A stretch of DNA of 64,000 bases from Candidatus Multivoradales bacterium (GCA_965223155.1 CBDCVR010000015.1:1-64000), one strand, 5' to 3'; shown: positions 18,845 through 32,114, counted from the stretch's first letter. Notes: a model not told the origin generated them from the letters alone. Translations and numbers: made by a program.

Positions 18845-19795
18845 CTAGTTACTCTGCTTGGCCTGGACACGTTTCAGAATCCGGATGTCTCCGCTCAGGG
18901 TCTCGAAGCGCAGCTCGGTCCCCCCGGAGCCAATCCGAAAGCGGCCCTCGCCGCCTGTCCGAAGCACGTACTTGCCCCGCTTGCGCCGAGCGACAGGAAC
19001 CGGCGCTGGCAGCGCCTCGAGCGCATGCTCGGACCAGGCTTCGCCCCACTGGCTGGAGATCACCAGATCCGCCGCCAGATCCGCCGGCAGCGCCACCTCG
19101 ACTTCGCCGCTGATCGTCTTCCAGGTGCTGGCGGCACGCGGGCTGCCTTGGAAGTCGCCCCGAACCGAACCGCTCACGCTCTCGAATCGCCCCGAGCCCG
19201 ACACTCCGTCGAAGCGGACGTCACCGGTCACGTTCACCAGCCGGTGCTCGCCATCCACGTCCCGCAGGACCAGGTCACCGTCCAGCACCGTGCGCAACTG
19301 CACGTCGGTATTCCTGGGTACTTCGATCTCGAAGTCGTAGTGGACTTCGTAGCCCAGCTCCACGTGGTGTCCGGCCCACTCGCGCCGGTCGATCTTCGAC
19401 CGCCAAGGGCCATCGACGAAGAGCTCCAGCGTCCCCGGCGGCCGGTAGACGTCAAGCTCGACTTCGGTCCGGGCGCGTTCGAGCCAGCGCGCGCTCTCGG
19501 CCAAGACCGTCCGCTCGGCGCGCACCGCGACCGTGGTCCGGTCGGCGCCCGCGACGCGGACCCCGCCCCAGAGCGTGTCCACAATGAGCTGGCGGCGGCC
19601 GTCCGCTGGCTCGAGCTCGAACGTCTCGCGCACGGTCTCGGTCTCGGTCAGGTCCTTCGCCAAGTCTGCATCCGCGGCGCCGGTAAGAAACGCAGCCAGC
19701 GCCGGCACCAGTGCCAGCGCGGCGAATCGCTTCGCTACGCGGAGGGCGCCGGGGTTGCGGGAATCGTGCGGTCTCATGGCGACTCGTTCCTTCAT
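18845..19795 (-). CDS. DUF4097-family protein
   Basis: YDFEIEVPRNT, NVTGDV, SVSGSV, TISGEV, ETLSGDIRI; ATGA-coupled to the anti-sigma gene. Confidence 0.8.
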   Translation of the reverse strand: MKERVAMRPHDSRNPGALRVAKRFAALALVPALAAFLTGAADADLAKDLTETETVRETFELEPADGRRQLIVDTLWGGVRVAGADRTTVAVRAERTVLAESARWLERARTEVELDVYRPPGTLELFVDGPWRSKIDRREWAGHHVELGYEVHYDFEIEVPRNTDVQLRTVLDGDLVLRDVDGEHRLVNVTGDVRFDGVSGSGRFESVSGSVRGDFQGSPRAASTWKTISGEVEVALPADLAADLVISSQWGEAWSEHALEALPAPVPVARRKRGKYVLRTGGEGRFRIGSGGTELRFETLSGDIRILKRVQAKQSN

Positions 19796-20691
19796 CCGAT
19801 CGAGCTGGGCGCCACCGCCAGAAACCACTGGCGTACGTCATCGTCCAGGGCCTCCGAGGACAGAGCCCGATCGACGTAGGAGCGATCGGCCCTGGCCAGG
19901 GCTTCCAGAACGACGGCCTGAACCTGGGGCGACTCCTGGTCGCCGAGACAGCCGGCGAGCCCTTCCCGGACATCGGGTCGATCGATGGCCGCGGCAAGGG
20001 CCTCGACCGCCGCCAGGCGGACGTTGTCGTTGGGATCCTGCCGCAATCGCTCGAACAAGGCCTCGATGACCCGGGCGCTCGCAACCGGACCGTGGTCCGG
20101 CTCGTCCCGGGTCAATTCCCCGTCTGCCAGCGCGATCCCGCGCAGCCGCTCGCTGGCGGCCTGGTGGTCCATGAGGGCAATCGAGACGGCCTCGGTAACC
20201 TGGCGCATCTCGGCCCGAAGCTCTCCGACTTCATTCCGGGCTCCGACGCCGCTGCCGAGCAGGAAACCGAGCCCGGCGCCGACCGCCAGAGTCGCCGCGA
20301 GAGCAAATCCCAGGCCCCGGTGCCAAGGACCCCGCAGCAGGCGGCCCCCTGCTTCTGATGGCTCCAATAGCTCCGATGCCTCCGGCCGCTCCGAGAACGG
20401 AATCGGCTCACCACCCTCTTCGCTCGCTTCCAACACGGCCGCCAGAGACGCCCTGAAGCGGCGCCGCATCCGGGCACTCAGCCGGGCGCTAGGCGCGGGG
20501 GCGGCCGTCAGTGCCGGATCGGCCTCCGGCAGGCGGCGCCAGAGGCGCTCCAGATCCAGAGCCTCCTCGCGGCAGGCGGGGCAACGGTCCAGATGCTCGC
20601 GCAGAGCCGATCCGTCCCGGGGCTCGACACCCTCCTCGAGGCAATCCAGCCAGCGAATCGAAAATTCTTTGCAGTTCATCGTCATCTCCAT
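19792..20691 (-). CDS. Zinc-binding anti-sigma factor (zf-HC2) - TM - HEAT repeats
   Basis: HLDRCPAC; TM GLGFALAATLAVGAGLGFLLG; ASERLRGI, DPNDNVRLAAVEAL, ESPQVQ. Confidence 0.85.
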   Translation of the reverse strand: MEMTMNCKEFSIRWLDCLEEGVEPRDGSALREHLDRCPACREEALDLERLWRRLPEADPALTAAPAPSARLSARMRRRFRASLAAVLEASEEGGEPIPFSERPEASELLEPSEAGGRLLRGPWHRGLGFALAATLAVGAGLGFLLGSGVGARNEVGELRAEMRQVTEAVSIALMDHQAASERLRGIALADGELTRDEPDHGPVASARVIEALFERLRQDPNDNVRLAAVEALAAAIDRPDVREGLAGCLGDQESPQVQAVVLEALARADRSYVDRALSSEALDDDVRQWFLAVAPSSIG

Positions 20692-20713
20692 GTCCTCGCT
20701 CGAGGCATACGCC

Positions 20714-21313
20714 CTAGCCAGCTTCCATGCCGGCCCGGGAGGCTCCTCCCAGTTCCGAGCCTTCCTCGGATGCGGCCAGCGTCCGGTACACGTCGCGTAG
20801 CTGGCGCAGCGCCCGGTGCACCCGAATCTTCACCGCCCCTACCGAACAATCCAGAATGGCCGCGATCTCTTCGTACTTCCGGTGCTCGAACCGGCTCAGC
20901 ACGAGTACCTCCCGGCGGCCTTCCGGCAGCCGGGCCAGGGCCTGCCGCATCCGCTCCCGGTCCTCGTCCCGTTCCAGGATCTCGACCGCGGAGGTCTCGG
21001 GGCTTTCGACCTCCGGAAGCTCCTCGACATTGAGCTCGGAATTTCGCGATCTGCGGAAGTGATCGTTGCAGACGTTTCTGGCGACCCGGTAGAGCCAGGG
21101 CAGGAACTCGGCCGATTCCTTGAACGACCGCCGGTAGCGGAGGGCGCGCAGGAAGGCCTCCTGGGTCAGATCTTCGGCCACTTCGGCGCGGCCGGTCAGA
21201 CGCAAGCAGAACCGGAAGATCCGTACGTGGTGCTTCTCGAACAGCTCGCCCAGCTTGCCCAGATCCCCGGCCTGGACCGCCAGCATCAACTCGGTGTCAG
21301 TGGGTGGGCGCAA
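20714..21313 (-). CDS. ECF sigma factor
   Basis: AEDLTQEAFL, WLYRVARN, LPEGRREVLVL, YEEIA..GAVKIRVHRA. Confidence 0.93.
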   Translation of the reverse strand: MRPPTDTELMLAVQAGDLGKLGELFEKHHVRIFRFCLRLTGRAEVAEDLTQEAFLRALRYRRSFKESAEFLPWLYRVARNVCNDHFRRSRNSELNVEELPEVESPETSAVEILERDEDRERMRQALARLPEGRREVLVLSRFEHRKYEEIAAILDCSVGAVKIRVHRALRQLRDVYRTLAASEEGSELGGASRAGMEAG

Positions 21314-23676: not shown

Positions 23677-24513
23677 CTAGGGATTGGCCTCGTGCCGATC
23701 TAGCAGCCAGCGGGCGACGAAACCCAGACCCAGAAACACGGCCAGCATCAGCCAGTTCCAGCGATGACCGTAGGAGGTCGTCGGGAAGTGGCTGCTGATC
23801 ATGAGAAAGACCAGAGGCACCGCCAGGAAGGTGTTGTGCTTCGAGCGCTGCTTGGCACGCCCCGCAAGCGCCGCGTCCGGCGCCGATCCCGATTCCACCG
23901 CCGCCACGAGCTGGCGCTGAGCCGGCAGGATCCGCATCCACACGTTGGCCGCCATGATCGTTCCCATCGCCGCGCCCACGTGGATGTAGGCGGCACGGCC
24001 CGATAGCACCGTGCTCAAGGCGTACGCCAGGGCGATGAGAAGCCCCAAGCAGAGGCCGGCGGCCAGGCGCTCGGAGCGGGCAAGCCGAGACATCCAGATG
24101 GCGTCGTAGGCCACCCAGGCCAGAGCCAGAGCTCCGAGACCGACACTGACGGCCAAACCGCGGCCGGCGCCGCCCGGCTCGACCAGGACGCCGCCCAGGT
24201 AGTACACCACCACCAGCAGCGACACGCCGCTCAGCCAGGTCAGCGCGGCTTCCCACCGGAACCAGTGCACCTGGCCCGGCAGCCGCTCCGGCCGGCCCTC
24301 CTTATGAACCCGGTAGAAGCCGCCCGAGTGAATCATCCAGACGCCTTCGTCGGGGCTATCGCCCGCCCCGCCCTCGACCCGGAACCGAGTGTCCAACCAA
24401 CCAAACAGAGCCGTCTGGCCGATCCAGAAGATGCCGGCCAGAACGTGGAACCAGCGCAGGCCGAGGTGGAGCCACTCGTAACCCGAGCCGAGGAGCCAGT
24501 TGGTCCAAGTCAT
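23677..24513 (-). CDS. PuuD-like (urate hydroxylase N-terminal) membrane protein lacking the cytochrome c domain
   Basis: LRWFHVLAGIFWIG, WMIHSGGFY, HWFRWEAALTWLSG, GTIMAANVW..ILPAQ, RSKHNTFL, MISSHFP; no CxxCH. Confidence 0.8.
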   Translation of the reverse strand: MTWTNWLLGSGYEWLHLGLRWFHVLAGIFWIGQTALFGWLDTRFRVEGGAGDSPDEGVWMIHSGGFYRVHKEGRPERLPGQVHWFRWEAALTWLSGVSLLVVVYYLGGVLVEPGGAGRGLAVSVGLGALALAWVAYDAIWMSRLARSERLAAGLCLGLLIALAYALSTVLSGRAAYIHVGAAMGTIMAANVWMRILPAQRQLVAAVESGSAPDAALAGRAKQRSKHNTFLAVPLVFLMISSHFPTTSYGHRWNWLMLAVFLGLGFVARWLLDRHEANP

Positions 24514-25331
24514 CGGCCGGGCACGCTACCACGCTCGAGCAGGACGTAGAGGTTGAGGTCGCGCGTCCGGCCGTCCTCCAGAAAGGCAAACTCCCGCTCC
24601 ACGCCGGGCAACCGGGTGAGCCGGCGGACCTCGGTCCGGTCGGCAAAGTGACAGTAGCGCACCGCCTCGCCGTCGCCCCAACGCAAGAGATGGTCGCCCG
24701 GCTCGAGATCCTCGGCAGCGAGCCGCCCCGCCTCTTCGGCGAGCCTCACGGCCGGGCCGAGCTCGTCCCAGAACGCCAGCCGGCGCCGGAAGCGGTCATG
24801 GTCACCGAACTGCCAGAAGGAGAGCGCCAGCATGCCGCCCGGCCGGACCCGGGCCCAAGCCGATTCCAGAAACGCTTGGCGAATGGCAAAGGAGGGCACA
24901 TGATGCAGGAAGCCGAAGCACGCCACCAGATCGAAACAGGCGGCCCCGCCGCATCCGGTCAGGCCTCGGCCGACGAGGTCCCAGACGGCGAAGCGGACCC
25001 GCGAGCCGGCGGGCGGGCCGGCCCGGAGACCGGCCCGCGCCAAGAGGGCCAGGGAGGCGTCGAGCCCGAGGTAGTCCACCGGCTCCGCCCAGCAGGCCGC
25101 GAGCGCCGCCAGCAGACGGCCGTTGCCGCAGCCAAGATCCAGGACCGACGCCTTGGCATCCTTCCCGGCAGGCCCGAGGGCGTCCGCCGCTGTGCTCCCG
25201 GCTCGAGCCAGGCGTAGTACATTCCTCCAGCCCGGCCACGGGTCGCGCCGGCTGGCGTCGAAGGCCTCGGCGTGCCGCCGGTAGAAGTCCCGGTTGACCT
25301 CGGCCAGCAACTCCACGGTCGAACGCTGCAA
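24510..25331 (-). CDS. Class I SAM-dependent methyltransferase, Trm9/ALKBH8-like
   Basis: FY..AEAFDASRRDPWPGW, LDLGCGNG, FDLVACFGFLHHVP, RPGG..SFW, RYCHF; TTG start with AGGAAGG SD. Confidence 0.8.
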   Translation of the reverse strand: MQRSTVELLAEVNRDFYRRHAEAFDASRRDPWPGWRNVLRLARAGSTAADALGPAGKDAKASVLDLGCGNGRLLAALAACWAEPVDYLGLDASLALLARAGLRAGPPAGSRVRFAVWDLVGRGLTGCGGAACFDLVACFGFLHHVPSFAIRQAFLESAWARVRPGGMLALSFWQFGDHDRFRRRLAFWDELGPAVRLAEEAGRLAAEDLEPGDHLLRWGDGEAVRYCHFADRTEVRRLTRLPGVEREFAFLEDGRTRDLNLYVLLERGSVPGR

Positions 25332-25333
25332 CG

Positions 25334-27127
25334 ATGCCTTCCTATCTCGATTTCGAGCCCGAGGACTACCGGAGCGAGCTTATCGCCATCCTGACCGAGC
25401 TGGCCCGCCTGGACGAATTCGACGCCGCCGACCTCCAACGAGTGCTTCGCGGCCATCCCAAGGACGGGCGCGGCCTGTTCTCGAAGAGCGAGCTTGTGCG
25501 CGGCCTGCGGCGGTTCGGCGCCGAGCTGCCGCAGGCTCTGCCCGGCGACGGCGTCGAGCTTTTGGACCGGCTGCGCATGAAGCCGGTCCGGACCCTGAGC
25601 GGGGTCGCGCCCGTGACGGTCTTGACCAAGCCCTTTCCCTGCCCGGGCCGCTGCATCTTCTGTCCCAGCGACGTGCGCATGCCCAAGAGCTATCTGTCGG
25701 ATGAGCCCGGTGCCCAGCGCGCGGCCCAGCACCAATTTGACCCGTTCCTCCAGACCCTGGCCCGGCTGCTCGCCTACCATCACAACGGCCACCCCATCGA
25801 CAAGATCGAGCTCATCGTCCTGGGCGGTACCTGGTCGTCCTACGACGAGGACTATCAGGTCTGGTTTCTCAAGCGCTGCTTCGACGCTCTCAACACCTTC
25901 TCGAACGACCCAGAGGCCGGGCTCCCCGGCCTGCCCGACGCCAAGCCCGCCGTCGACTTCCGCCGGCTCGACGAGCGTGTCAACGGCAGGAATCTGGAGC
26001 GAAGCTACAACCAGGTGGTCTCGGACTTCGTGGCCCGCCGCCCGGACGCTTCCCACGCCGCCACCGCGGCTGCCGGGGAAACGGCGACCTGGCAGGAGCT
26101 CGAAGCCGCTCAGCGCGTCAACGAGTCGGCGCGGGCGCGCTGCGTAGGACTCTCGCTCGAGACGCGGCCAGACCACTTGACTCTGGCCGAGGCCGTCCGC
26201 ATGCGGCGGCTGGGGGCCACCAAGGTCCAGATCGGCTACCAGAGTCTCGACGATGAGGTGCTGGCGGCGAACCGGCGAGGCCACGACGTTGCCGCCGTTC
26301 GCGCTTCGATGGCGGTCCTGCGCCAGACCGGGTTCAAAATCCACGCGCACTGGATGCCCAACCTTCACGGCTCGACCCCGGAGCACGACCTGGAGGACTT
26401 CGAGCGACTCTTCGCCGATCCCGACTTCCGCCCGGACGAGCTCAAGATCTATCCCTGCAGCCTGATCGAGAGTGCCGAGCTCATGGCCTACTTCGAGCGT
26501 GGCGACTGGCGGCCCTACACGCACGAAGAGCTCTTGGAAGTCCTGAGCGGGGCTATGCTCCGCACCCCACGCTACTGCCGGCTGACCCGAATCATCCGCG
26601 ACATCCCGGGGACCGACATCGTCGCCGGCAACCGCCTGACCAACTTTCGCGAGCTGGCCGAGGAGGCGTTGGACGAGCGCGGGCTCCGCGCCCGGGACAT
26701 CCGAGCGCGCGAGGTGCGTGCGACCGAGCCGGATCCCGACGGATTGAGCCTACGAGTCACTGAGTACGCTACCGGCGTCGGCAGCGAGCAGTTCCTGGAG
26801 CTGGTCACGCCGGACGACCGCCTTGCCGCCTTTCTGCGCTTGAGTCTGCCGGCCAAGCCAGTACCCATCCCGGAGATCGCGATCGCGGCCATGGTGCGCG
26901 AGCTGCACGTTTACGGCCGCTTGCTCGCGGTCGGCGAGCGCCGTTTCGGGCCGGCCCAGCACAGCGGGCTCGGAGCTCGGCTGCTGGCCGAAGCCGAGCG
27001 CCGGGCCGCGGCGGCCGGATTCCCGGCGCTCGCGGTCATCTCGTCGATCGGTACCCGCGAGTACTACCGGCGCCGAGGATTTGGCGACGGCGTTCTCTAT
27101 CAGTCGAAGCCGCTCGAGGCGGCCTGA
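25334..27127 (+). CDS. elp3: Elp3 tRNA uridine(34) acetyltransferase (radical SAM + KAT)
   Basis: KPVRTLSGVAPV, CPGRCIFCP, MPKSY, GGTW, ETRPD, HWMPNL, PDELKIYP, RLTRIIRDIP, RELHVYG, QHSGLG, ISSIGTREYYRRRG. Confidence 0.93.
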   Translation: MPSYLDFEPEDYRSELIAILTELARLDEFDAADLQRVLRGHPKDGRGLFSKSELVRGLRRFGAELPQALPGDGVELLDRLRMKPVRTLSGVAPVTVLTKPFPCPGRCIFCPSDVRMPKSYLSDEPGAQRAAQHQFDPFLQTLARLLAYHHNGHPIDKIELIVLGGTWSSYDEDYQVWFLKRCFDALNTFSNDPEAGLPGLPDAKPAVDFRRLDERVNGRNLERSYNQVVSDFVARRPDASHAATAAAGETATWQELEAAQRVNESARARCVGLSLETRPDHLTLAEAVRMRRLGATKVQIGYQSLDDEVLAANRRGHDVAAVRASMAVLRQTGFKIHAHWMPNLHGSTPEHDLEDFERLFADPDFRPDELKIYPCSLIESAELMAYFERGDWRPYTHEELLEVLSGAMLRTPRYCRLTRIIRDIPGTDIVAGNRLTNFRELAEEALDERGLRARDIRAREVRATEPDPDGLSLRVTEYATGVGSEQFLELVTPDDRLAAFLRLSLPAKPVPIPEIAIAAMVRELHVYGRLLAVGERRFGPAQHSGLGARLLAEAERRAAAAGFPALAVISSIGTREYYRRRGFGDGVLYQSKPLEAA

Positions 27128-27139
27128 ACCGGCCGCCTA

Positions 27140-27160
27140 GTACCGCCGCACTGGCGGTAC
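27140..27160. terminator. Hairpin between convergent genes (possible terminator)
   Basis: gtaccgcc-gcact-ggcggtac 8-bp stem; no U-tract. Confidence 0.35.
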
Positions 27161-27179
27161 CCCAGTACCGCGACCGAGA

Positions 27180-30100
27180 CTAACGAGGCTCCGCCGTCTC
27201 CCGCAGGATGCGCCAGAGATCTCCCTCGCGAACCAGGTCCAGGGTCTTGCGCACCCGGTCCTGAAAGGTGTTCGAGCGATAGCGCTGGTCAAAGGAGACC
27301 GTGGCGCGGGTATCCGACGCGATCGACGTCTCGAAGCTTTCGACCTCGACTTGGATGAAGCTGGGCCGGCTCAGGCGGTCGCGCCGCTGCTCGCGCCAGG
27401 CGTCAAGCGTCAGGTCCCCGGCCGGCTCGAACTCACCCGAGTAGAAGCTCAGATAGTCCTCGACCCGCTGGCCGGACCAGGCGGCGGCCCAGGCACGAGC
27501 CAGTGCTTCCAGATCCCCAGCCGAGGGAGCCTCGGCCGCAAGGCCCACGGGCTGCCGCGGCGCGATCGGTTCTTCCGCGGGCATCTCCGCGGGCTCGCCA
27601 ACCGCTTCGACCGCTTCTTCAGCCCGTTCCCCGCCGAGGGGCTCAGCCGGTTCGGCCTTGGCGAGGGTAGCTTCGGGGTCGGCGGAACCCGTGACCTCCG
27701 GGTCCGCGAGTGCCAGCTCGGCCAGCCGGTTCTCCAGATCCGCTCGGTGGCCTCGCTCCCGATCCAGATCACGAAGGTTCTCCGCCAGCCGCGCCTCGAG
27801 ATCGGCGCGACGCAGCTCGGCGGCCTCCAGGGCCGCCGTCAGACCGCCCGTTTCGCCCTCCAGGGCCTCGATCCTTTCTTGCCATTCCTCCGGGCCGGGC
27901 GCCGCCGCGGCCGCGGCCAAGCGCGTCTCCGCCTCCCCCAGAGCCGAGGTCAGGCGACCGACTTCCTGGTCCCGATCGGTGAGATCGGACCGGATTTCCC
28001 CCAGCTCGGCTTCGAGGCCGGCAAGCCGCTCGGTGAGCGCGGCGATCTCAGCCGTGGCGGCGGCCCGGGAGCTTTCCGCCGACTGGGCCCGCTCGGCCTG
28101 CTCGGCTAGCTCAGCCATCTTAGCCAGCGCGGCATCCTCAGCCTGCGCCTCGGCTTCCAAGTCCGCCACCCGAACCTTGAGCCCATCGCGCTCGTCCGTC
28201 ACCTCGGCCAGCTGGCGATCGAATGCCTCGAGTTCGGCCTCGTGATCCCGCCGAACCGCCTCGACTGTGTCGGCGCTCGTGGCCAGAGGCTGCAAGCGGT
28301 CGACTTCCGCCTGGAGGCCGGCAATCCGGGCCTCCAGCTCTTGCCGCTCGCGCTCGCGCTCGTCGGCGCCGGTGTCGAGCGCGACCTCCAGCTCGGAAAC
28401 CCGAGCCTGCGCCTCAGCCAGAGAGCCGGACAGGTCCTCACCCTGCTGCCGGGCCTCCTGGACTCGGGTCTCAGACTCCGATCGGGCCGCCTCGGCTTCG
28501 GCCAGGGCGCTCTGGGCCTCCTCGCGCTCGGCTTCCAGCAGGACAATGCGGTCGGCCTGGTCAGCCTGCCCTCGGACCTCGGCTTCCAATTCGGTCAGAC
28601 GGTCCCGCAGGCCGCCGACCTCGGCGCTCAGAGCGTCTCGCTCCTCACGCAGGCTCGCCGCCTCCCCTTCGAACGAGTTCGCCGCGTCGGCGCGCTCGGC
28701 CAGAGTCGTCCGCGCTTCCGCCGACTCGGCTTCGAGCTCTCCCACCCGGGCCTGTGCCTGCCGCAGGTCTCGAGTCACCACCATCTCGACGAAGTCCTTG
28801 TGGAACCAGCCTTCCCGTTCGTCAGCCAGGCGAACTCGCAGCCACTCGCCCTCGAGAGCGAGAGGCGTCGCCTGGGTCCCGGGCTCCAGACAATCGATCG
28901 GCGCATCGTCGGTACCGGGAGTCTGCCGCAGGCTAAGGCACGGATCCGTCTCGGGCTTGACCGCGAGCTGGCCCACGCCAAGCATCGCCAGCGCCACCAC
29001 CCGTTCGCTCGGGATCCGGTCTGCCAGGGCGCTCGAGCCGGCGGCATGGCTTGCGAGCTCGGCCTCCAGCGCCGCGGCACGCGCGACGGCGGCTTCGAGC
29101 TGGTCGGCCGCGCTCTCTTGCTCGGCCTGGCCGCGGGCCAACGCCTCGGCCAATCGACCGACCTCGGCCTCCGCCTGCTCCAGACGGCTAGCCAGGGCGG
29201 CTGCGGCTTCGGTCTCGCCCTCGCGAGCCGCGGCGAGCTGGGTCTCGCGATCAGCCAATGCCTGGGTCAAACGGACCACCTCGGCCTCCGCCTGCGCCAG
29301 CCGCTCCAGTCGACCGGCCACCTCGGCCTCGGCCTGCTCCAGTCGCTCCAGCCGGCCGGCCGCCTCTGTCGCTGCCTTGGCCCCATCCTCACGCGCCGCG
29401 GCGAGCTGGGTCTCGCGATCGGCCAGTGCCTGGGTCAGCCGGACCGCGTCGGCCTCGGCTTCTTCCAACCGCGCCGCCAGTGCCGTCGCGACCTCCTGTT
29501 CGCCGGCGCGCTCGGTGCTTCGCTGGGTCTCCAACCGCGCCAGGCGTTGGCGCAGGTCGTCAGATTCGGCCTCGTGACCATCGTCAGCCGGTCGGTTGCG
29601 TCGCGAACGCCCGCCGGTTCGAGGAAGCGCGCCGCGACCCAGCCGCGGGCGCCGGCGGCGGTCGCCACCGCGAGCCAGTCCGCGACTCCGTCCTGGACCG
29701 TTACCGAGGTCCCGGGGTCCAGGCAGTCCAGCTTGGCGCTGCCGGTACCCGGGTCCGAGCGCAGGGTCAGACACGGCTCGGCCTCCGGGCTGACCAGCAG
29801 GGCCTCCAGTCCGAGCCCTTGAAGCAAAGCGTCGAAGCGCTTCTCGGCCTGGCTCGCCCACTCCCTCATACCGTCTAGCTCCTGCTGTGCCAGGGCCAGA
29901 TCCCGGCGACTCGTTTCGAGCTCGCGCTGGAGCCTGGCGGACTGATCCTCGGCCTGGTCGGCCCGACCCGCCCGCCGCTCGAGATCGGTAACCCGTGCCC
30001 GAGCCTGCCCGAGCTGCCGGCCGGCCTCGGCGCTCTCCGCCCGGGCGGCCTCGAGCTCGCCTTCGAGCTGGACACGCTCCGCTCGGAAGCGGCTCAACTC

Positions 30101-31450
30101 CTCACGCTGGCGGCCCGCATCCACCGCATGGGCGGGAAGGACGCTGCCGGCCTCGACCCAGCCCTCTCGACCGCTTTCGGCACGGACCCGAAGCCAGCCG
30201 GGGCGCAGATTGAGCACCTGCAGGGCGCCGCCAGCGGGCACGCATTCGAGCTCCACCCCACGGGCGTCACTGGAAGGCCGTAGCGGCGCGCAACGGTCGG
30301 CGTCACGCCGCACCGCGACAGCCTCGGCACCCAGCAGGCCCGGCGCCGCGCGCAAGGCCGAGCGCAAGACGGCCTCAGTAGAGCGGCTGCGTTCGAGCTC
30401 TCGGGCCAACTGGGCGATCCGCCGACGCTCGGCATCGAGCTCTGTGCCGGTCCCGTCGGCAGCGGCGAGACGGGCCCGCAGCTCGCTCGATTCGTCTTCG
30501 AGAGCGGCGAGCCGCTGCTGGAGCTCAGCGCTCTCGGTCGCGGCGGTCTGGAGCTCGGCGCCGAGGCGCTGGACCTCGGATTCGAGCCGTTCTGCGTCGC
30601 GCGCGGCAGCTTGACCGAGATCGGCCTCGGAGCCCGCCGCTTCGAGGCGATCCTGGAGTTCGGTGACCCGCGCCGCCAGGGCCTGGCGGGCGGTCTCGGC
30701 GCCGGAGACCGCGGCGCGAGCGTCGGCGAGCTCTCGGTCGCGATCGGCCACGGCGGCACGAGCCGCCTCGAGCTCGGTTTCGAGGCGCTTTGCTTCGGCC
30801 GTGAGCTGGGCTTGGAGCTCGGGATCGGGCGCCGGCGCTGCCGCCAACTCCTCACGCGCTTGGCGCAAGGATTCCACGAGTTCCAGGCGATCGGCGTGGA
30901 GCTCGGCCATGCGCTGTTTCAGGGACTGGTTTTCGGTCTCCAGCCCTTCCAGCTTCCGGGTGGCTTCGGCCAGCGGGTCGGCCGGCCGCCGTCTCGGAGC
31001 GTCCGCGCCGCCTCCGGCCGCGCGCACCCGGATCACCAGACCGCCGCTCGAAGGCGCAACCTCGGCCTCAATCGGGGCGCGGCCGTGGACCACCAGGCGG
31101 GTCGTCGGGACACCATCCGGCACCGAAAACCCCACTTCCACCTCGGACACGATTCCCGACCTCGCGGTTCGGTCCAGGGCCGAGGGACCGGGCACGGCGT
31201 TGGGCAGATGGACGGTGAGCCGGTCGGCACCGGAGTACCCCGAAGAGCCCGGCTCGATCCTCGAGCTCATGCCGGCTTCCCCGATCACCAAGATCGTGGA
31301 CTCGGCTCCGTCGACTCTCAGGGATACGTTTTGAATCTCGACCGGAAACTCACTCTGCGCCCCAACCGGTGCCGACGTGATCGCCGCCGCCAGAAGCAAG
31401 AGCCCAATGCCGCAAAGCGGTTGCCGTCGGCCAGTCCTGAATTGCTGCAC
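27180..31450 (-). CDS. Large secreted protein: AMIN-like N-terminus, long coiled coils, three SH3b domains, C-terminal NTF2-like domain (frameshift near 29575)
   Basis: GTG 31450 plus signal peptide; SH3b units C-x-x-LR..C..W-L-x-V..GW; C-terminal WAAAWS..YLSFYS..F.Q.Y.S..D...K.L......W.I..E; the two ORFs join at RLTMV/EAESDDLRQ. Confidence 0.75.
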
Positions 31451-31562
31451 GTGTCTACCTCGCTGCCGCCGCAAGCCGGGCGGAGTTGCAACCCTCGAAG
31501 TTGGCGATGATACCAAGCCGCCCTGTGTCCTCCCGGGGCAGCAGTAAACTGGACCCGGAGCG

Positions 31563-32114
31563 ATGCGTAGCGATCCGGGCGCTCGGGAGCCGAGCGATGT
31601 ATCGGCGTTGCTGGCCGACGTCAAGCCGACCGCATTGCGGATCTGTAGCCGCTATCGGATTCCGCCCCAGGACGCCGAGGACATGCTGCAGCAGACAACG
31701 CTGGCGATGCTCGACAGCCGCCGTCCGATTCACAACCCTCGCGCCTGGTTCGCCGGCACGCTGCGCAATCAGTGCCTGATGTACTGGCGCCGGCGGCGCC
31801 GCCGCCTCTACCAGGCGGTGGACTCAGCCGTTCTCGAAGCCCTGGCCGACCCCACTGAGCCCGAGCAGCGGCGGGTCGAGTTCTCCCGCGATCTCTCTCG
31901 AACGATGCGCTCACTTCCGGACCGCTGCCGGAACGTCCTGAAGCTGCGCTATGGGCTCGGCTGCCGCCCCAAAGAGGCCGCGGAACGGCTCGGGTACCGA
32001 ACCTCGAGCATCTACAAGATCCTGGAACGCTGCTTGGCCGCCCTGTCCAAGAACCTGCTGGCGCGCGATCCCAACGCCGAGGCGGCGTGCTCACCCCGAT
32101 CCGAGCCGATCTAA
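31563..32114 (+). CDS. ECF-type sigma factor (no adjacent anti-sigma)
   Basis: DAEDMLQQT, NPRAWFAGTLRN, LPDRCRNVLKLRYGLG..EAAERLG. Confidence 0.8.
   Translation: MRSDPGAREPSDVSALLADVKPTALRICSRYRIPPQDAEDMLQQTTLAMLDSRRPIHNPRAWFAGTLRNQCLMYWRRRRRRLYQAVDSAVLEALADPTEPEQRRVEFSRDLSRTMRSLPDRCRNVLKLRYGLGCRPKEAAERLGYRTSSIYKILERCLAALSKNLLARDPNAEAACSPRSEPI

Follow-up and report, generated by a model that had tools for sequence, protein, structure and literature searches.

The locus considered here raises the question of whether a bacterium may modify the wobble uridine (U34) of its tRNAs by a route of the archaeal and eukaryotic kind. It lies in a 64,000-nucleotide stretch of DNA from Candidatus Multivoradales bacterium (GCA_965223155.1, CBDCVR010000015.1:1-64000), referred to below as the window, in which the G+C content is approximately 70% throughout. 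Within this stretch, a gene encoding Elp3 stands head to head with one encoding a class I S-adenosylmethionine (SAM)-dependent methyltransferase similar to Trm9. Wobble modification of the 5-methoxycarbonylmethyluridine (mcm5U) type is assigned to eukaryotes and a few archaea, and 5-carboxymethylaminomethyluridine (cmnm5U) and 5-methylaminomethyluridine (mnm5U), made by MnmE-MnmG, to bacteria. The initial annotation of the window proposed that the two genes constitute a linked two-step, eukaryote-type wobble-uridine pathway, and comparative genomics, in the form of family placement, synteny, co-occurrence and genome content, supports this proposal. It is considered likely that Elp3 makes 5-carboxymethyluridine (cm5U) at position 34 and that the Trm9-like enzyme esterifies this to mcm5U34, or to 5-methoxycarbonylmethyl-2-thiouridine (mcm5s2U) in conjunction with MnmA.

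Both open reading frames are found exactly where they had been annotated. The methyltransferase gene (24510..25331, minus strand) encodes 273 amino acids from a TTG start, and elp3 (25334..27127, plus strand) encodes, from an ATG, a 597 amino acid protein with radical SAM and GNAT/KAT domains, a stand-alone 'long' bacterial form of Elp3. Only 2 bp (25332..25333) separate the divergent start codons, such that the junction reads caa-cg-ATG; in same-genus relatives (three loci, L009-L011), approximately 5 bp lie between the aligned first codons of the pair. Homologues of the methyltransferase align from its residue 1, and at least 90% of them share T5 and L9, which supports the TTG start. A Shine-Dalgarno-like GGAAGG sequence is present 5 nt ahead of this TTG, within the first elp3 codons on the other strand, and no such run precedes the elp3 ATG in the interval 25300-25360. 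The 2-bp spacing implies that promoters and leaders must sit inside the coding sequence of the partner gene, or that elp3 is leaderless. A scan of 24300-27400 for sigma-70 promoters and terminators returned no sites of either kind, a result that is uninformative at a G+C content of around 70%.

The description of the plus-strand product as an intact Elp3 is borne out by its family score, its matches among solved structures and its radical SAM and KAT motifs. It scores 481.7 bits against TIGR01211 (cut-off 350), with residues 75-593 covering model positions 50-521 of 522, and it matches the Elp3 structures of Methanocaldococcus infernus (6iaz, E = 1.4e-104) and Dehalococcoides mccartyi (5l7j, E = 8.1e-100, 338.3 bits), as well as eukaryotic Elp3 chains at E-values of 6e-79 to 3.3e-74. 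The two annotated motifs are present in the translation: the radical SAM [4Fe-4S] motif CPGRCIFC (25640..25663, plus strand), comprising C103, C107 and C110, aligns with CphGkCifC of the M. infernus protein (MinElp3), and the acetyl-CoA binding motif QHSGLGA of the KAT domain (residues 542-548; 26957..26977, plus strand) aligns with QHmGyGr. From its family membership, the protein can be inferred to be a tRNA uridine-34 carboxymethyl synthase.

A two-block alignment with MinElp3, in which residues 188 and 254 map onto chain positions 139 and 143, delimits, within the radical SAM domain, an insertion of 65 residues (189-253; 25898..26092, plus strand) that has no counterpart in MinElp3 or in a group of shorter Elp3s, here termed Dehalococcoidia-type. 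When the window protein was aligned with 44 full-length Elp3s from the wider set of loci described below and eight of the Dehalococcoidia type, this span was at least 40 residues in 32 of the 45 long proteins and 5 residues in all eight short ones. The linker segment (26687-26716, plus strand) reads RARDIRAREV where MinElp3 has RCRCIRCREV, and the same loss of the cysteine triad is seen in 34 of the 45 long bacterial proteins, the triad being kept in 8/8 of the Dehalococcoidia type. As far as the available literature text goes, this triad is reported to be common to bacterial and archaeal Elp3 and missing from eukaryotic Elp3; as the eukaryotic proteins also lack it, its loss does not exclude the window protein from the family. 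The 75 residues ahead of the first aligned residue form an N-terminal extension of net acidic composition (10 Lys or Arg, 15 Asp or Glu). The basic N-terminal extension of Elp3 helps tRNA binding (Lin 2019).

The minus-strand product carries the methyltransferase motifs noted in the initial annotation (FDASRRDPWPGW, LDLGCGNG, FLHHVPS, RPGGMLALSFW and VRYCHF), and the resemblance to Trm9 pointed out there is supported by a profile search. The profile, A1, has 254 positions and was built from 42 of the 99 homologues found in a first search, picked by eye for spread. Among 177,635 distinct PDB sequences, its top match is Yarrowia lipolytica Trm9 (5cm2_Z; E = 7.2e-18, 67.9 bits), in a match that takes in positions 26-233 of the 254 in the profile and residues 3-181 of the 205 in the chain; the runner-up, 3bus, scores 47.4 bits, 20 bits below Trm9. 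The solved 5cm2_Z chain is without its first 38 residues. The alignment runs from the N-terminal TR.KPWP through motif I, the HH pair and two tryptophans to RY.YH. Because it spans the N- and C-terminal motifs, the likeness to Trm9 does not come from the Rossmann core alone. At E-values up to 1e-30, A1 matches 2,019 of 1.84 billion representatives at 50% identity, which makes this a large family. A second homologue search, with an alignment as query, retrieved the same bacterial family and reached no named archaeal or eukaryotic Trm9, and a protein atlas search returned solely unnamed or generic bacterial methyltransferase clusters. The automatic name 'tRNA (uracil-5-)-methyltransferase TRM9' of the Joint Genome Institute (JGI) is attached to five of the 99 homologues and to two more from the second search.

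Published mutagenesis of Saccharomyces cerevisiae Trm9 (ScTrm9) allows the active site to be compared residue by residue. In the available part of that study (Letoquart 2015, PMC4678810), R29, D72, H116, W145, W168, R241, Y243 and N271 are needed for activity, R29 and R241 being proposed to hold the carboxylate of cm5U and W145 stacking on U34. Mapping through the alignment of A1 with 5cm2_Z, and the numbering of the S. cerevisiae and Y. lipolytica proteins in the same study, places the first six of these residues at R28, D91, H144, W173, W218 and R225 of the window methyltransferase, columns kept in 42, 42, 39, 42, 42 and 42 of the 42 family sequences, respectively. Hence six of the seven essential residues that can be aligned are retained. 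The H115/H116 pair of ScTrm9 corresponds to H143/H144, kept in 42 and 39 of 42. Y17, invariant in the 42 sequences, precedes R28 by 11 residues, the same spacing as between Y18 and R29 in ScTrm9 numbering.

The coupling of the two genes was studied first in the order to which the window belongs, represented by 41 genomes (40 relatives and the window's own), from which 20 methyltransferase loci were taken. An adjoining and divergent Elp3 is present within a 1.5-kb flank at 16 of the 19 loci from relatives; at the other three it is on the same contig at a distance of 1.8 kb (G020), 3.8 kb (G025) or 2.4 kb (G014), so that Elp3 is found within 4 kb at 19/19. In one relative of the same genus (G003:C6:149488-150203) the methyltransferase is split into two overlapping pieces in different frames, corresponding to residues 1-149 and 156-269, which suggests either a frameshift or a mistake in the assembly. 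When each species was represented by one genome, a scan identified at least 500 confirmed relatives, and the loci of the best 80 are labelled as Acidobacteriota, Thermoanaerobaculia, Myxococcota/Deltaproteobacteria, Chloroflexota, Patescibacteria, a Spirochaetaceae metagenome-assembled genome, Actinomycetota and others, the pair being found in at least six phyla. Two carriers of the pair are in culture, Slackia exigua ATCC 700122 (L078, Actinomycetota) and Aggregatilinea lenta (P0130). A tblastn search with the window Elp3 gave a match at 59 of the 80 loci. At 58 of these Elp3 lies upstream in divergent orientation, the exception being L074, where a fragment of 32 residues, on the same strand, is all that matches. 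No match was obtained at 21 loci, six of which extend less than 1.8 kb upstream and 15 at least 3 kb; five of these 15 genomes were checked, and all five carry Elp3 over the cut-off elsewhere. Clustering open reading frames of at least 90 amino acids across the 80 loci revealed no third conserved gene; all that emerged besides the methyltransferase and Elp3 were shadow frames of the latter. An Elp3 cluster spanning 75 loci was rejected as a single-linkage artefact.

The distribution of the two genes among genomes follows the same pattern. In the order, Elp3 scores over the cut-off in 23 of 41 genomes, and the methyltransferase (E-values up to 1e-20) is found in 22, all within those 23; it is present in 22/23 Elp3-positive and 0/18 Elp3-negative genomes, the best match in the latter (8.4e-9) being to the core alone. 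Sample 1, drawn evenly from the window's phylum, consists of 201 genomes, each at least 90% complete; eight of them have Elp3 over the cut-off, and full-length A1 matches (E-values up to 2.8e-75) occur in the same eight. One of these (G055) belongs to a family outside the window's order and again has the pair adjoining and divergent; in a further genome (G223), a 58.8-bit A1 match is to the core alone. Sample 2 comprised 151 genomes of Chloroflexota, the phylum of a Phototrophicaceae genome contributing one of the wider loci (L070). Here Elp3 is over the cut-off in 31 genomes and the A1 family (E-values up to 6.1e-53) is detected in 18, all Elp3-positive. Across both phylum samples, the methyltransferase family is thus seen in 26 of 39 Elp3-positive genomes and in none of the 313 that are Elp3-negative. 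The tallies include five genomes flagged as unpublished (G005, G067, G092, G187 and G266), all of which are Elp3-negative and enter the denominators alone.

The window's own genome (4.0 Mb in 15 contigs, 98.66% complete) was searched for MnmE, MnmG and Trm112. No MnmG over the cut-off was found in it (best score 27.5 bits, cut-off 524.85), nor any MnmE (best score 87, cut-off 252.6, from GTPase domains alone), and it has one Trm112-like gene. MnmG is over the cut-off in 167 of the 201 genomes of sample 1, divided as 0/8 Elp3-positive and 167/193 Elp3-negative, and in 70 of the 151 of sample 2, divided as 0/31 and 70/120. This amounts to 0/39 Elp3-positive genomes in the two samples, and MnmG was likewise found in none of five further pair-bearing genomes from other phyla, at E-values up to 1e-20. 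The converse does not hold, as MnmG is missing in 22 of the 193 and 50 of the 120 Elp3-negative genomes; among the genomes sampled, Elp3 is seen solely where MnmG is absent, and the absence of MnmG does not imply Elp3. The Elp3 module and MnmE-MnmG are therefore mutually exclusive in these genomes, as expected of alternatives for one role. Both would act at C5 of U34 in split-box tRNAs and combine with thiolation by MnmA, and the module would fill the place that MnmE-MnmG has in most bacteria. They are unrelated in their enzymes and chemistry, MnmE-MnmG (with MnmC, giving cmnm5U or mnm5U34) using GTPase activity, flavin adenine dinucleotide, folate and glycine to build another side chain, and the Elp3 module using radical SAM and acetyl-CoA.

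Potential substrates and the enzymes acting alongside the module are also represented in this genome. MnmA (TIGR00420) scores 303.3 bits (cut-off 236.95), and aragorn identifies 55 tRNA genes, with U34 tRNAs for Lys, Glu, Gln, Arg(UCU), Leu(UAA), Gly(UCC) and selenocysteine (SeC, UCA); every split box is further served by a tRNA with C34. With thiolation by MnmA, the final form in tRNA-Lys(UUU), tRNA-Glu(UUC) and tRNA-Gln(UUG) would be mcm5s2U, a hybrid in which bacterial thiolation is combined with C5 chemistry of the archaeal or eukaryotic kind. In mammals, ALKBH8, a homologue of Trm9, makes the mcm5U found at the wobble position of tRNA-Sec, and tRNA-SeC(UCA) would be a further candidate substrate of the module. 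The same search bears on whether the methyltransferase might instead resemble CmoM, a class I enzyme that performs equivalent chemistry, a SAM-dependent methyl esterification of a U34 side-chain carboxylate, on uridine 5-oxyacetic acid (cmo5U) to give mcmo5U, the methyl ester known from U34 in bacteria. CmoM (8joz_A) and CmoA (4gek) are indeed among the A1 matches. However, CmoM scores 32.9 bits against the 67.9 of Trm9, and neither CmoB nor CmoA is found over the cut-off in the genome (best scores 30.1 against 275 and 23.2 against 193.3), hence no cmo5U substrate is expected. On these two grounds a CmoM identity was rejected, its probability being close to nil.

The reading favoured here is thus of a two-step module for U34 of archaeal or eukaryotic type. 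In the first step, as family membership suggests, the stand-alone Elp3 would use its radical SAM cluster and acetyl-CoA to carboxymethylate U34 at C5, yielding cm5U; in the second, the Trm9-like enzyme would transfer the methyl group of SAM onto the cm5U carboxylate, giving mcm5U, a step suggested by profile similarity, active-site conservation and gene linkage. Archaea provide a precedent for such an arrangement: in the available text of two studies (PMC6144793, PMC7663514), archaeal Elp3 alone makes cm5U in vitro and Trm9-Trm112 of Haloferax volcanii makes mcm5U, and the accessible parts of PMC6144793 and PMC5372719 describe clustered Elp3 and Trm9 genes in Sulfolobus solfataricus. The likeness to the minimal H. 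volcanii pathway lies in an Elp3 that would work without other Elongator subunits, followed by a separate Trm9-type methyltransferase, in the clustering of the genes, as in Sulfolobus, and in a small Trm112-type protein encoded elsewhere. The differences are the bacterial host, the divergent arrangement with 2 bp between the genes, a cysteine in place of Tyr243, and thiolation, which in archaea involves Ncs6/Tuc1 and here would fall to the bacterial MnmA. The eukaryotic system, in which Elongator (Elp1-6) is followed by Trm9-Trm112 (ALKBH8-TRMT112 in animals), would share the same two chemical steps. Trm9 from that system is the best solved relative (5cm2) of the window methyltransferase, with the active-site retention described above; by contrast, the motif RYYH of eukaryotes is RYCH here, there is no fusion to AlkB or RRM domains, and identity is approximately 19%.

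The results that weigh against this interpretation concern, first, the distance from Trm9, since the tie between the two proteins, drawn from sequence profiles, is remote at this level of identity. Trm9 is represented in the PDB by one structure alone, and a search of the PDB with the single methyltransferase sequence found no Trm9 at E-values up to 1. When the AlphaFold2 (AF2) model of the methyltransferase, which has a predicted local distance difference test score (pLDDT) of 90.5, was compared with solved structures, Foldseek ranked 5cm2_Z 40th, at 19% identity. By VIA-align, class I methyltransferases tie at Z-scores of 17-19, with Trm9 outside the best 50; the top three include 3e23 (Z = 18.6, root-mean-square deviation 2.9, 193 aligned), which the available text of Letoquart 2015 (PMC4678810) gives as the closest structural homologue of Y. 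lipolytica Trm9. Such ties with dozens of unrelated enzymes would fit a generic small-molecule or protein methyltransferase that lies beside elp3 by chance and resembles Trm9 through a shared Rossmann fold. So would its generic classification: Pfam reports solely the families Methyltransf_12, 25, 23, 11 and 31, no NCBIfam family is over its cut-off (UbiG, 29.7 bits against 102.95), and the public name of the named proteins among the 99 homologues is 'class I SAM-dependent methyltransferase'. Yet a chance neighbour would not be expected to align with Trm9 as far as the N-terminal TR..PWP and the C-terminal W...RY.H, to recur in divergent pairing at 58 of 80 loci across several phyla that share no other conserved neighbour, or to be absent from every Elp3-negative genome of the two phylum samples. 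This explanation is disfavoured, and considered very improbable.

Adverse evidence of a second sort comes from the substrate pocket. The equivalent of Tyr243 is C227, with cysteine at this position in 41 of the 42 family sequences and alanine in the other; in the accessible part of PMC4678810, the Y243A mutant of ScTrm9 retains approximately 10% of specific activity. N271, which reads the uracil ring, falls beyond the aligned stretch, and N260 in the motif LN.Y (kept in 40/42) is its inferred equivalent. The pocket hence differs from that of yeast Trm9, and the partner of the Dehalococcoidia-type Elp3 keeps RYYH. The two genes might then be functionally linked with a product other than mcm5U, the methyltransferase acting on another atom of the Elp3-modified nucleoside, on another Elp3-derived intermediate such as a precursor of 5-carbamoylmethyluridine (ncm5U), or at another tRNA position that is read along with U34. 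It is relevant in this regard that yeast trm9 mutants are reported to accumulate ncm5U and not cm5U (PMC3110198), and that those of H. volcanii are described as without cm5U (PMC6144793), as far as the available portions of these papers extend, so that even for model organisms it is not settled which step comes first. Against such a deviation in activity, the equivalents of R29 and R241, which are proposed to hold the carboxylate, and of W145, which stacks on U34, are invariant, the histidine pair is retained to the extent given above, and Trm9 is the closest solved relative of the family. A different methylation is consequently regarded as unlikely, and the formation of mcm5U as the better description of the second step.

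The Trm112-like protein, which may activate the methyltransferase as Trm112 does Trm9, is the weakest part of the reading. The single gene in the window's genome matches Trm112 (PF03966) at 33.8 bits (cut-off 22) and lies outside the window (G000:C15:429484-429729, or 1444-1692 of locus L007); it encodes 82 amino acids. The protein has approximately 25 extra residues between the halves of the zinc knuckle and two cysteines alone (C13 and C54), with which a four-ligand zinc site seems unlikely. The gene is found at 54-84% identity in 39 of the 41 genomes of the order, with or without Elp3; its occurrence does not follow that of the pair and so carries no specific information about the two genes. 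A complex of the methyltransferase and the Trm112-like protein, predicted from A1 and an alignment of 22 Trm112-like proteins (A2), scored 0.81 where the best control scored 0.60, and the required margin was passed by just 0.01; of 157 solved complexes 116 reach the mark, as do 2 of 215 mismatched pairs. Runs shared at least 93% of their contacts, and the pLDDT of the partner was at least 88. The best-determined predicted contacts pair the beta strand at methyltransferase residues 113-118 with residues 64-71 of the Trm112-like protein, in the strand-to-strand arrangement of solved Trm112 complexes. The pass may itself derive from the predictor's memory of those complexes.

The comparative evidence has adverse elements as well. 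One genome of the order (G039; 96% complete, 500 contigs) encodes a full Elp3, 59% identical to that of the window (L144, G039:C281:9000-17000), with no methyltransferase within 5 kb of it and none found in the genome by a single-protein query. Fisher values for co-occurrence and exclusivity overstate the independence of the observations, the genomes being kin. The initial annotation had also suggested that the pair possibly replaces MnmE and MnmG. Their absence from the window's genome agrees with this, and yet replacement is too simple an account, as MnmG stays below the cut-off throughout the 41 genomes of the order, also in the 18 that are Elp3-negative, several of which are 97-100% complete; the loss of MnmG evidently does not require Elp3. 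As regards the literature, the available text of PMC7663514 states that direct evidence of 5-carboxymethyluridine-type (xcm5U34) modifications in bacteria is lacking and that bacterial Elp3 is confined to one clade, and the accessible part of a later paper (PMC13315578, 2026) refers to 'numerous bacteria' with Elp3 alone. According to the portions seen of a 2017 review (PMC5372719), the eukaryotic methyltransferases that partner with Trm112 have no similar genes in bacteria, and the function of bacterial Trm112 is unknown. A full-text search, with subscription papers and supplements outside its scope, found no description of a bacterial Trm9 homologue or of a bacterial Elp3-methyltransferase pair in the texts available.

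The 13 Elp3-positive Chloroflexota of sample 2 outside the A1 family have small genomes (1.4-2.4 Mb) and Elp3 frames of approximately 460-520 amino acids. The possibility that these represent Elp3 without a partner was rejected, as seven of the eight loci examined have a divergent methyltransferase frame of 223-229 amino acids immediately upstream. These shorter proteins score 46-68 bits against A1, in two stretches, and by hhalign the example at L145 matches A1 with a probability of 99% (E = 4.9e-18, 168 columns). It carries LHHV, VW, VPW and YRYYH, and when searched alone against the PDB it matches Trm9 in sixth place, at 45.2 bits, with the longest coverage of any match. There are consequently two bacterial methyltransferase subfamilies, each tied to its own type of Elp3. 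The bacterial Elp3 studied so far, that of D. mccartyi (5L7J), is a stand-alone protein like that of the window, and at seven of the eight loci examined for its type a homologous methyltransferase is likewise upstream and divergent. The Dehalococcoidia-type Elp3 differs in being approximately 460 amino acids long, in keeping the CxCxxC triad and in having no insertion; its partner, of approximately 224 amino acids as opposed to the 273 of the window protein, has RYYH in place of RYCH and another N-terminal motif. At two loci (L145, 1702-2962, and L146, 1723-2965), a conserved multi-pass membrane protein of 179 amino acids follows the 224 amino acid RYYH methyltransferase on the same strand, and could be a third member of the Dehalococcoidia-type module.

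The genes surrounding the pair in the window are not conserved. On the minus strand, a membrane protein of the PF06181 family (Urate_ox_N; 278 amino acids, E = 1.7e-81) is encoded at 23677-24513, the start of its gene overlapping the methyltransferase stop codon by 4 bp, and this overlap implies that the two genes are probably co-transcribed. The PF06181 gene is present at one of the 19 loci from relatives; DUF72 is found at four of the 19, and takes its place in the same-genus relatives. Just downstream of elp3, two overlapping minus-strand frames rich in Ala, Glu, Leu and Arg (27180-29861 and 29435-31624; 893 and 729 amino acids) were noted by eye, with heptad-like repeats of the LEAELA... 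type and, in each, a short conserved block of the form 'CL.LR..PG......C...G......G.W..V'. Further away, also by eye and on the minus strand, 19792-21313 encodes an extracytoplasmic function (ECF)-type sigma factor-like protein (199 amino acids) followed by a putative anti-sigma protein (299 amino acids) with an N-terminal Cys/His motif; these are not part of the module.

The window adds an acidobacterial lineage to the organisms bearing these genes, together with a measured exclusivity to MnmG in two phylum samples, a residue-by-residue comparison with Trm9, a predicted complex with the Trm112-like protein and a division into two types of Elp3 and methyltransferase. Whether the pathway operates as proposed is directly testable, because cultured carriers exist in S. 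exigua ATCC 700122 and A. lenta. A broader generalisation is possible, though held with less than even confidence: that bacteria have, in the Elp3/Trm9-like module, a second general system for modifying C5 of the wobble uridine, spread over at least six phyla and approximately 2,000 clusters at 50% identity, exclusive of MnmE-MnmG, yielding mcm5s2U through MnmA and activated by Trm112. Were this so, bacterial Trm112 would gain its first known client, and the distribution of the module would point to gene transfer or to ancient sharing. The kind of pathway is already known, the domain of life in which it is proposed here being the unexpected part, and the finding is of real interest to specialists in tRNA modification. 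Judged from the genes compared here, bacteria probably run the archaeal and eukaryotic type of Elp3-Trm9 pathway too, and if the module proves general, the identity of the wobble modification would not be a domain-level trait.

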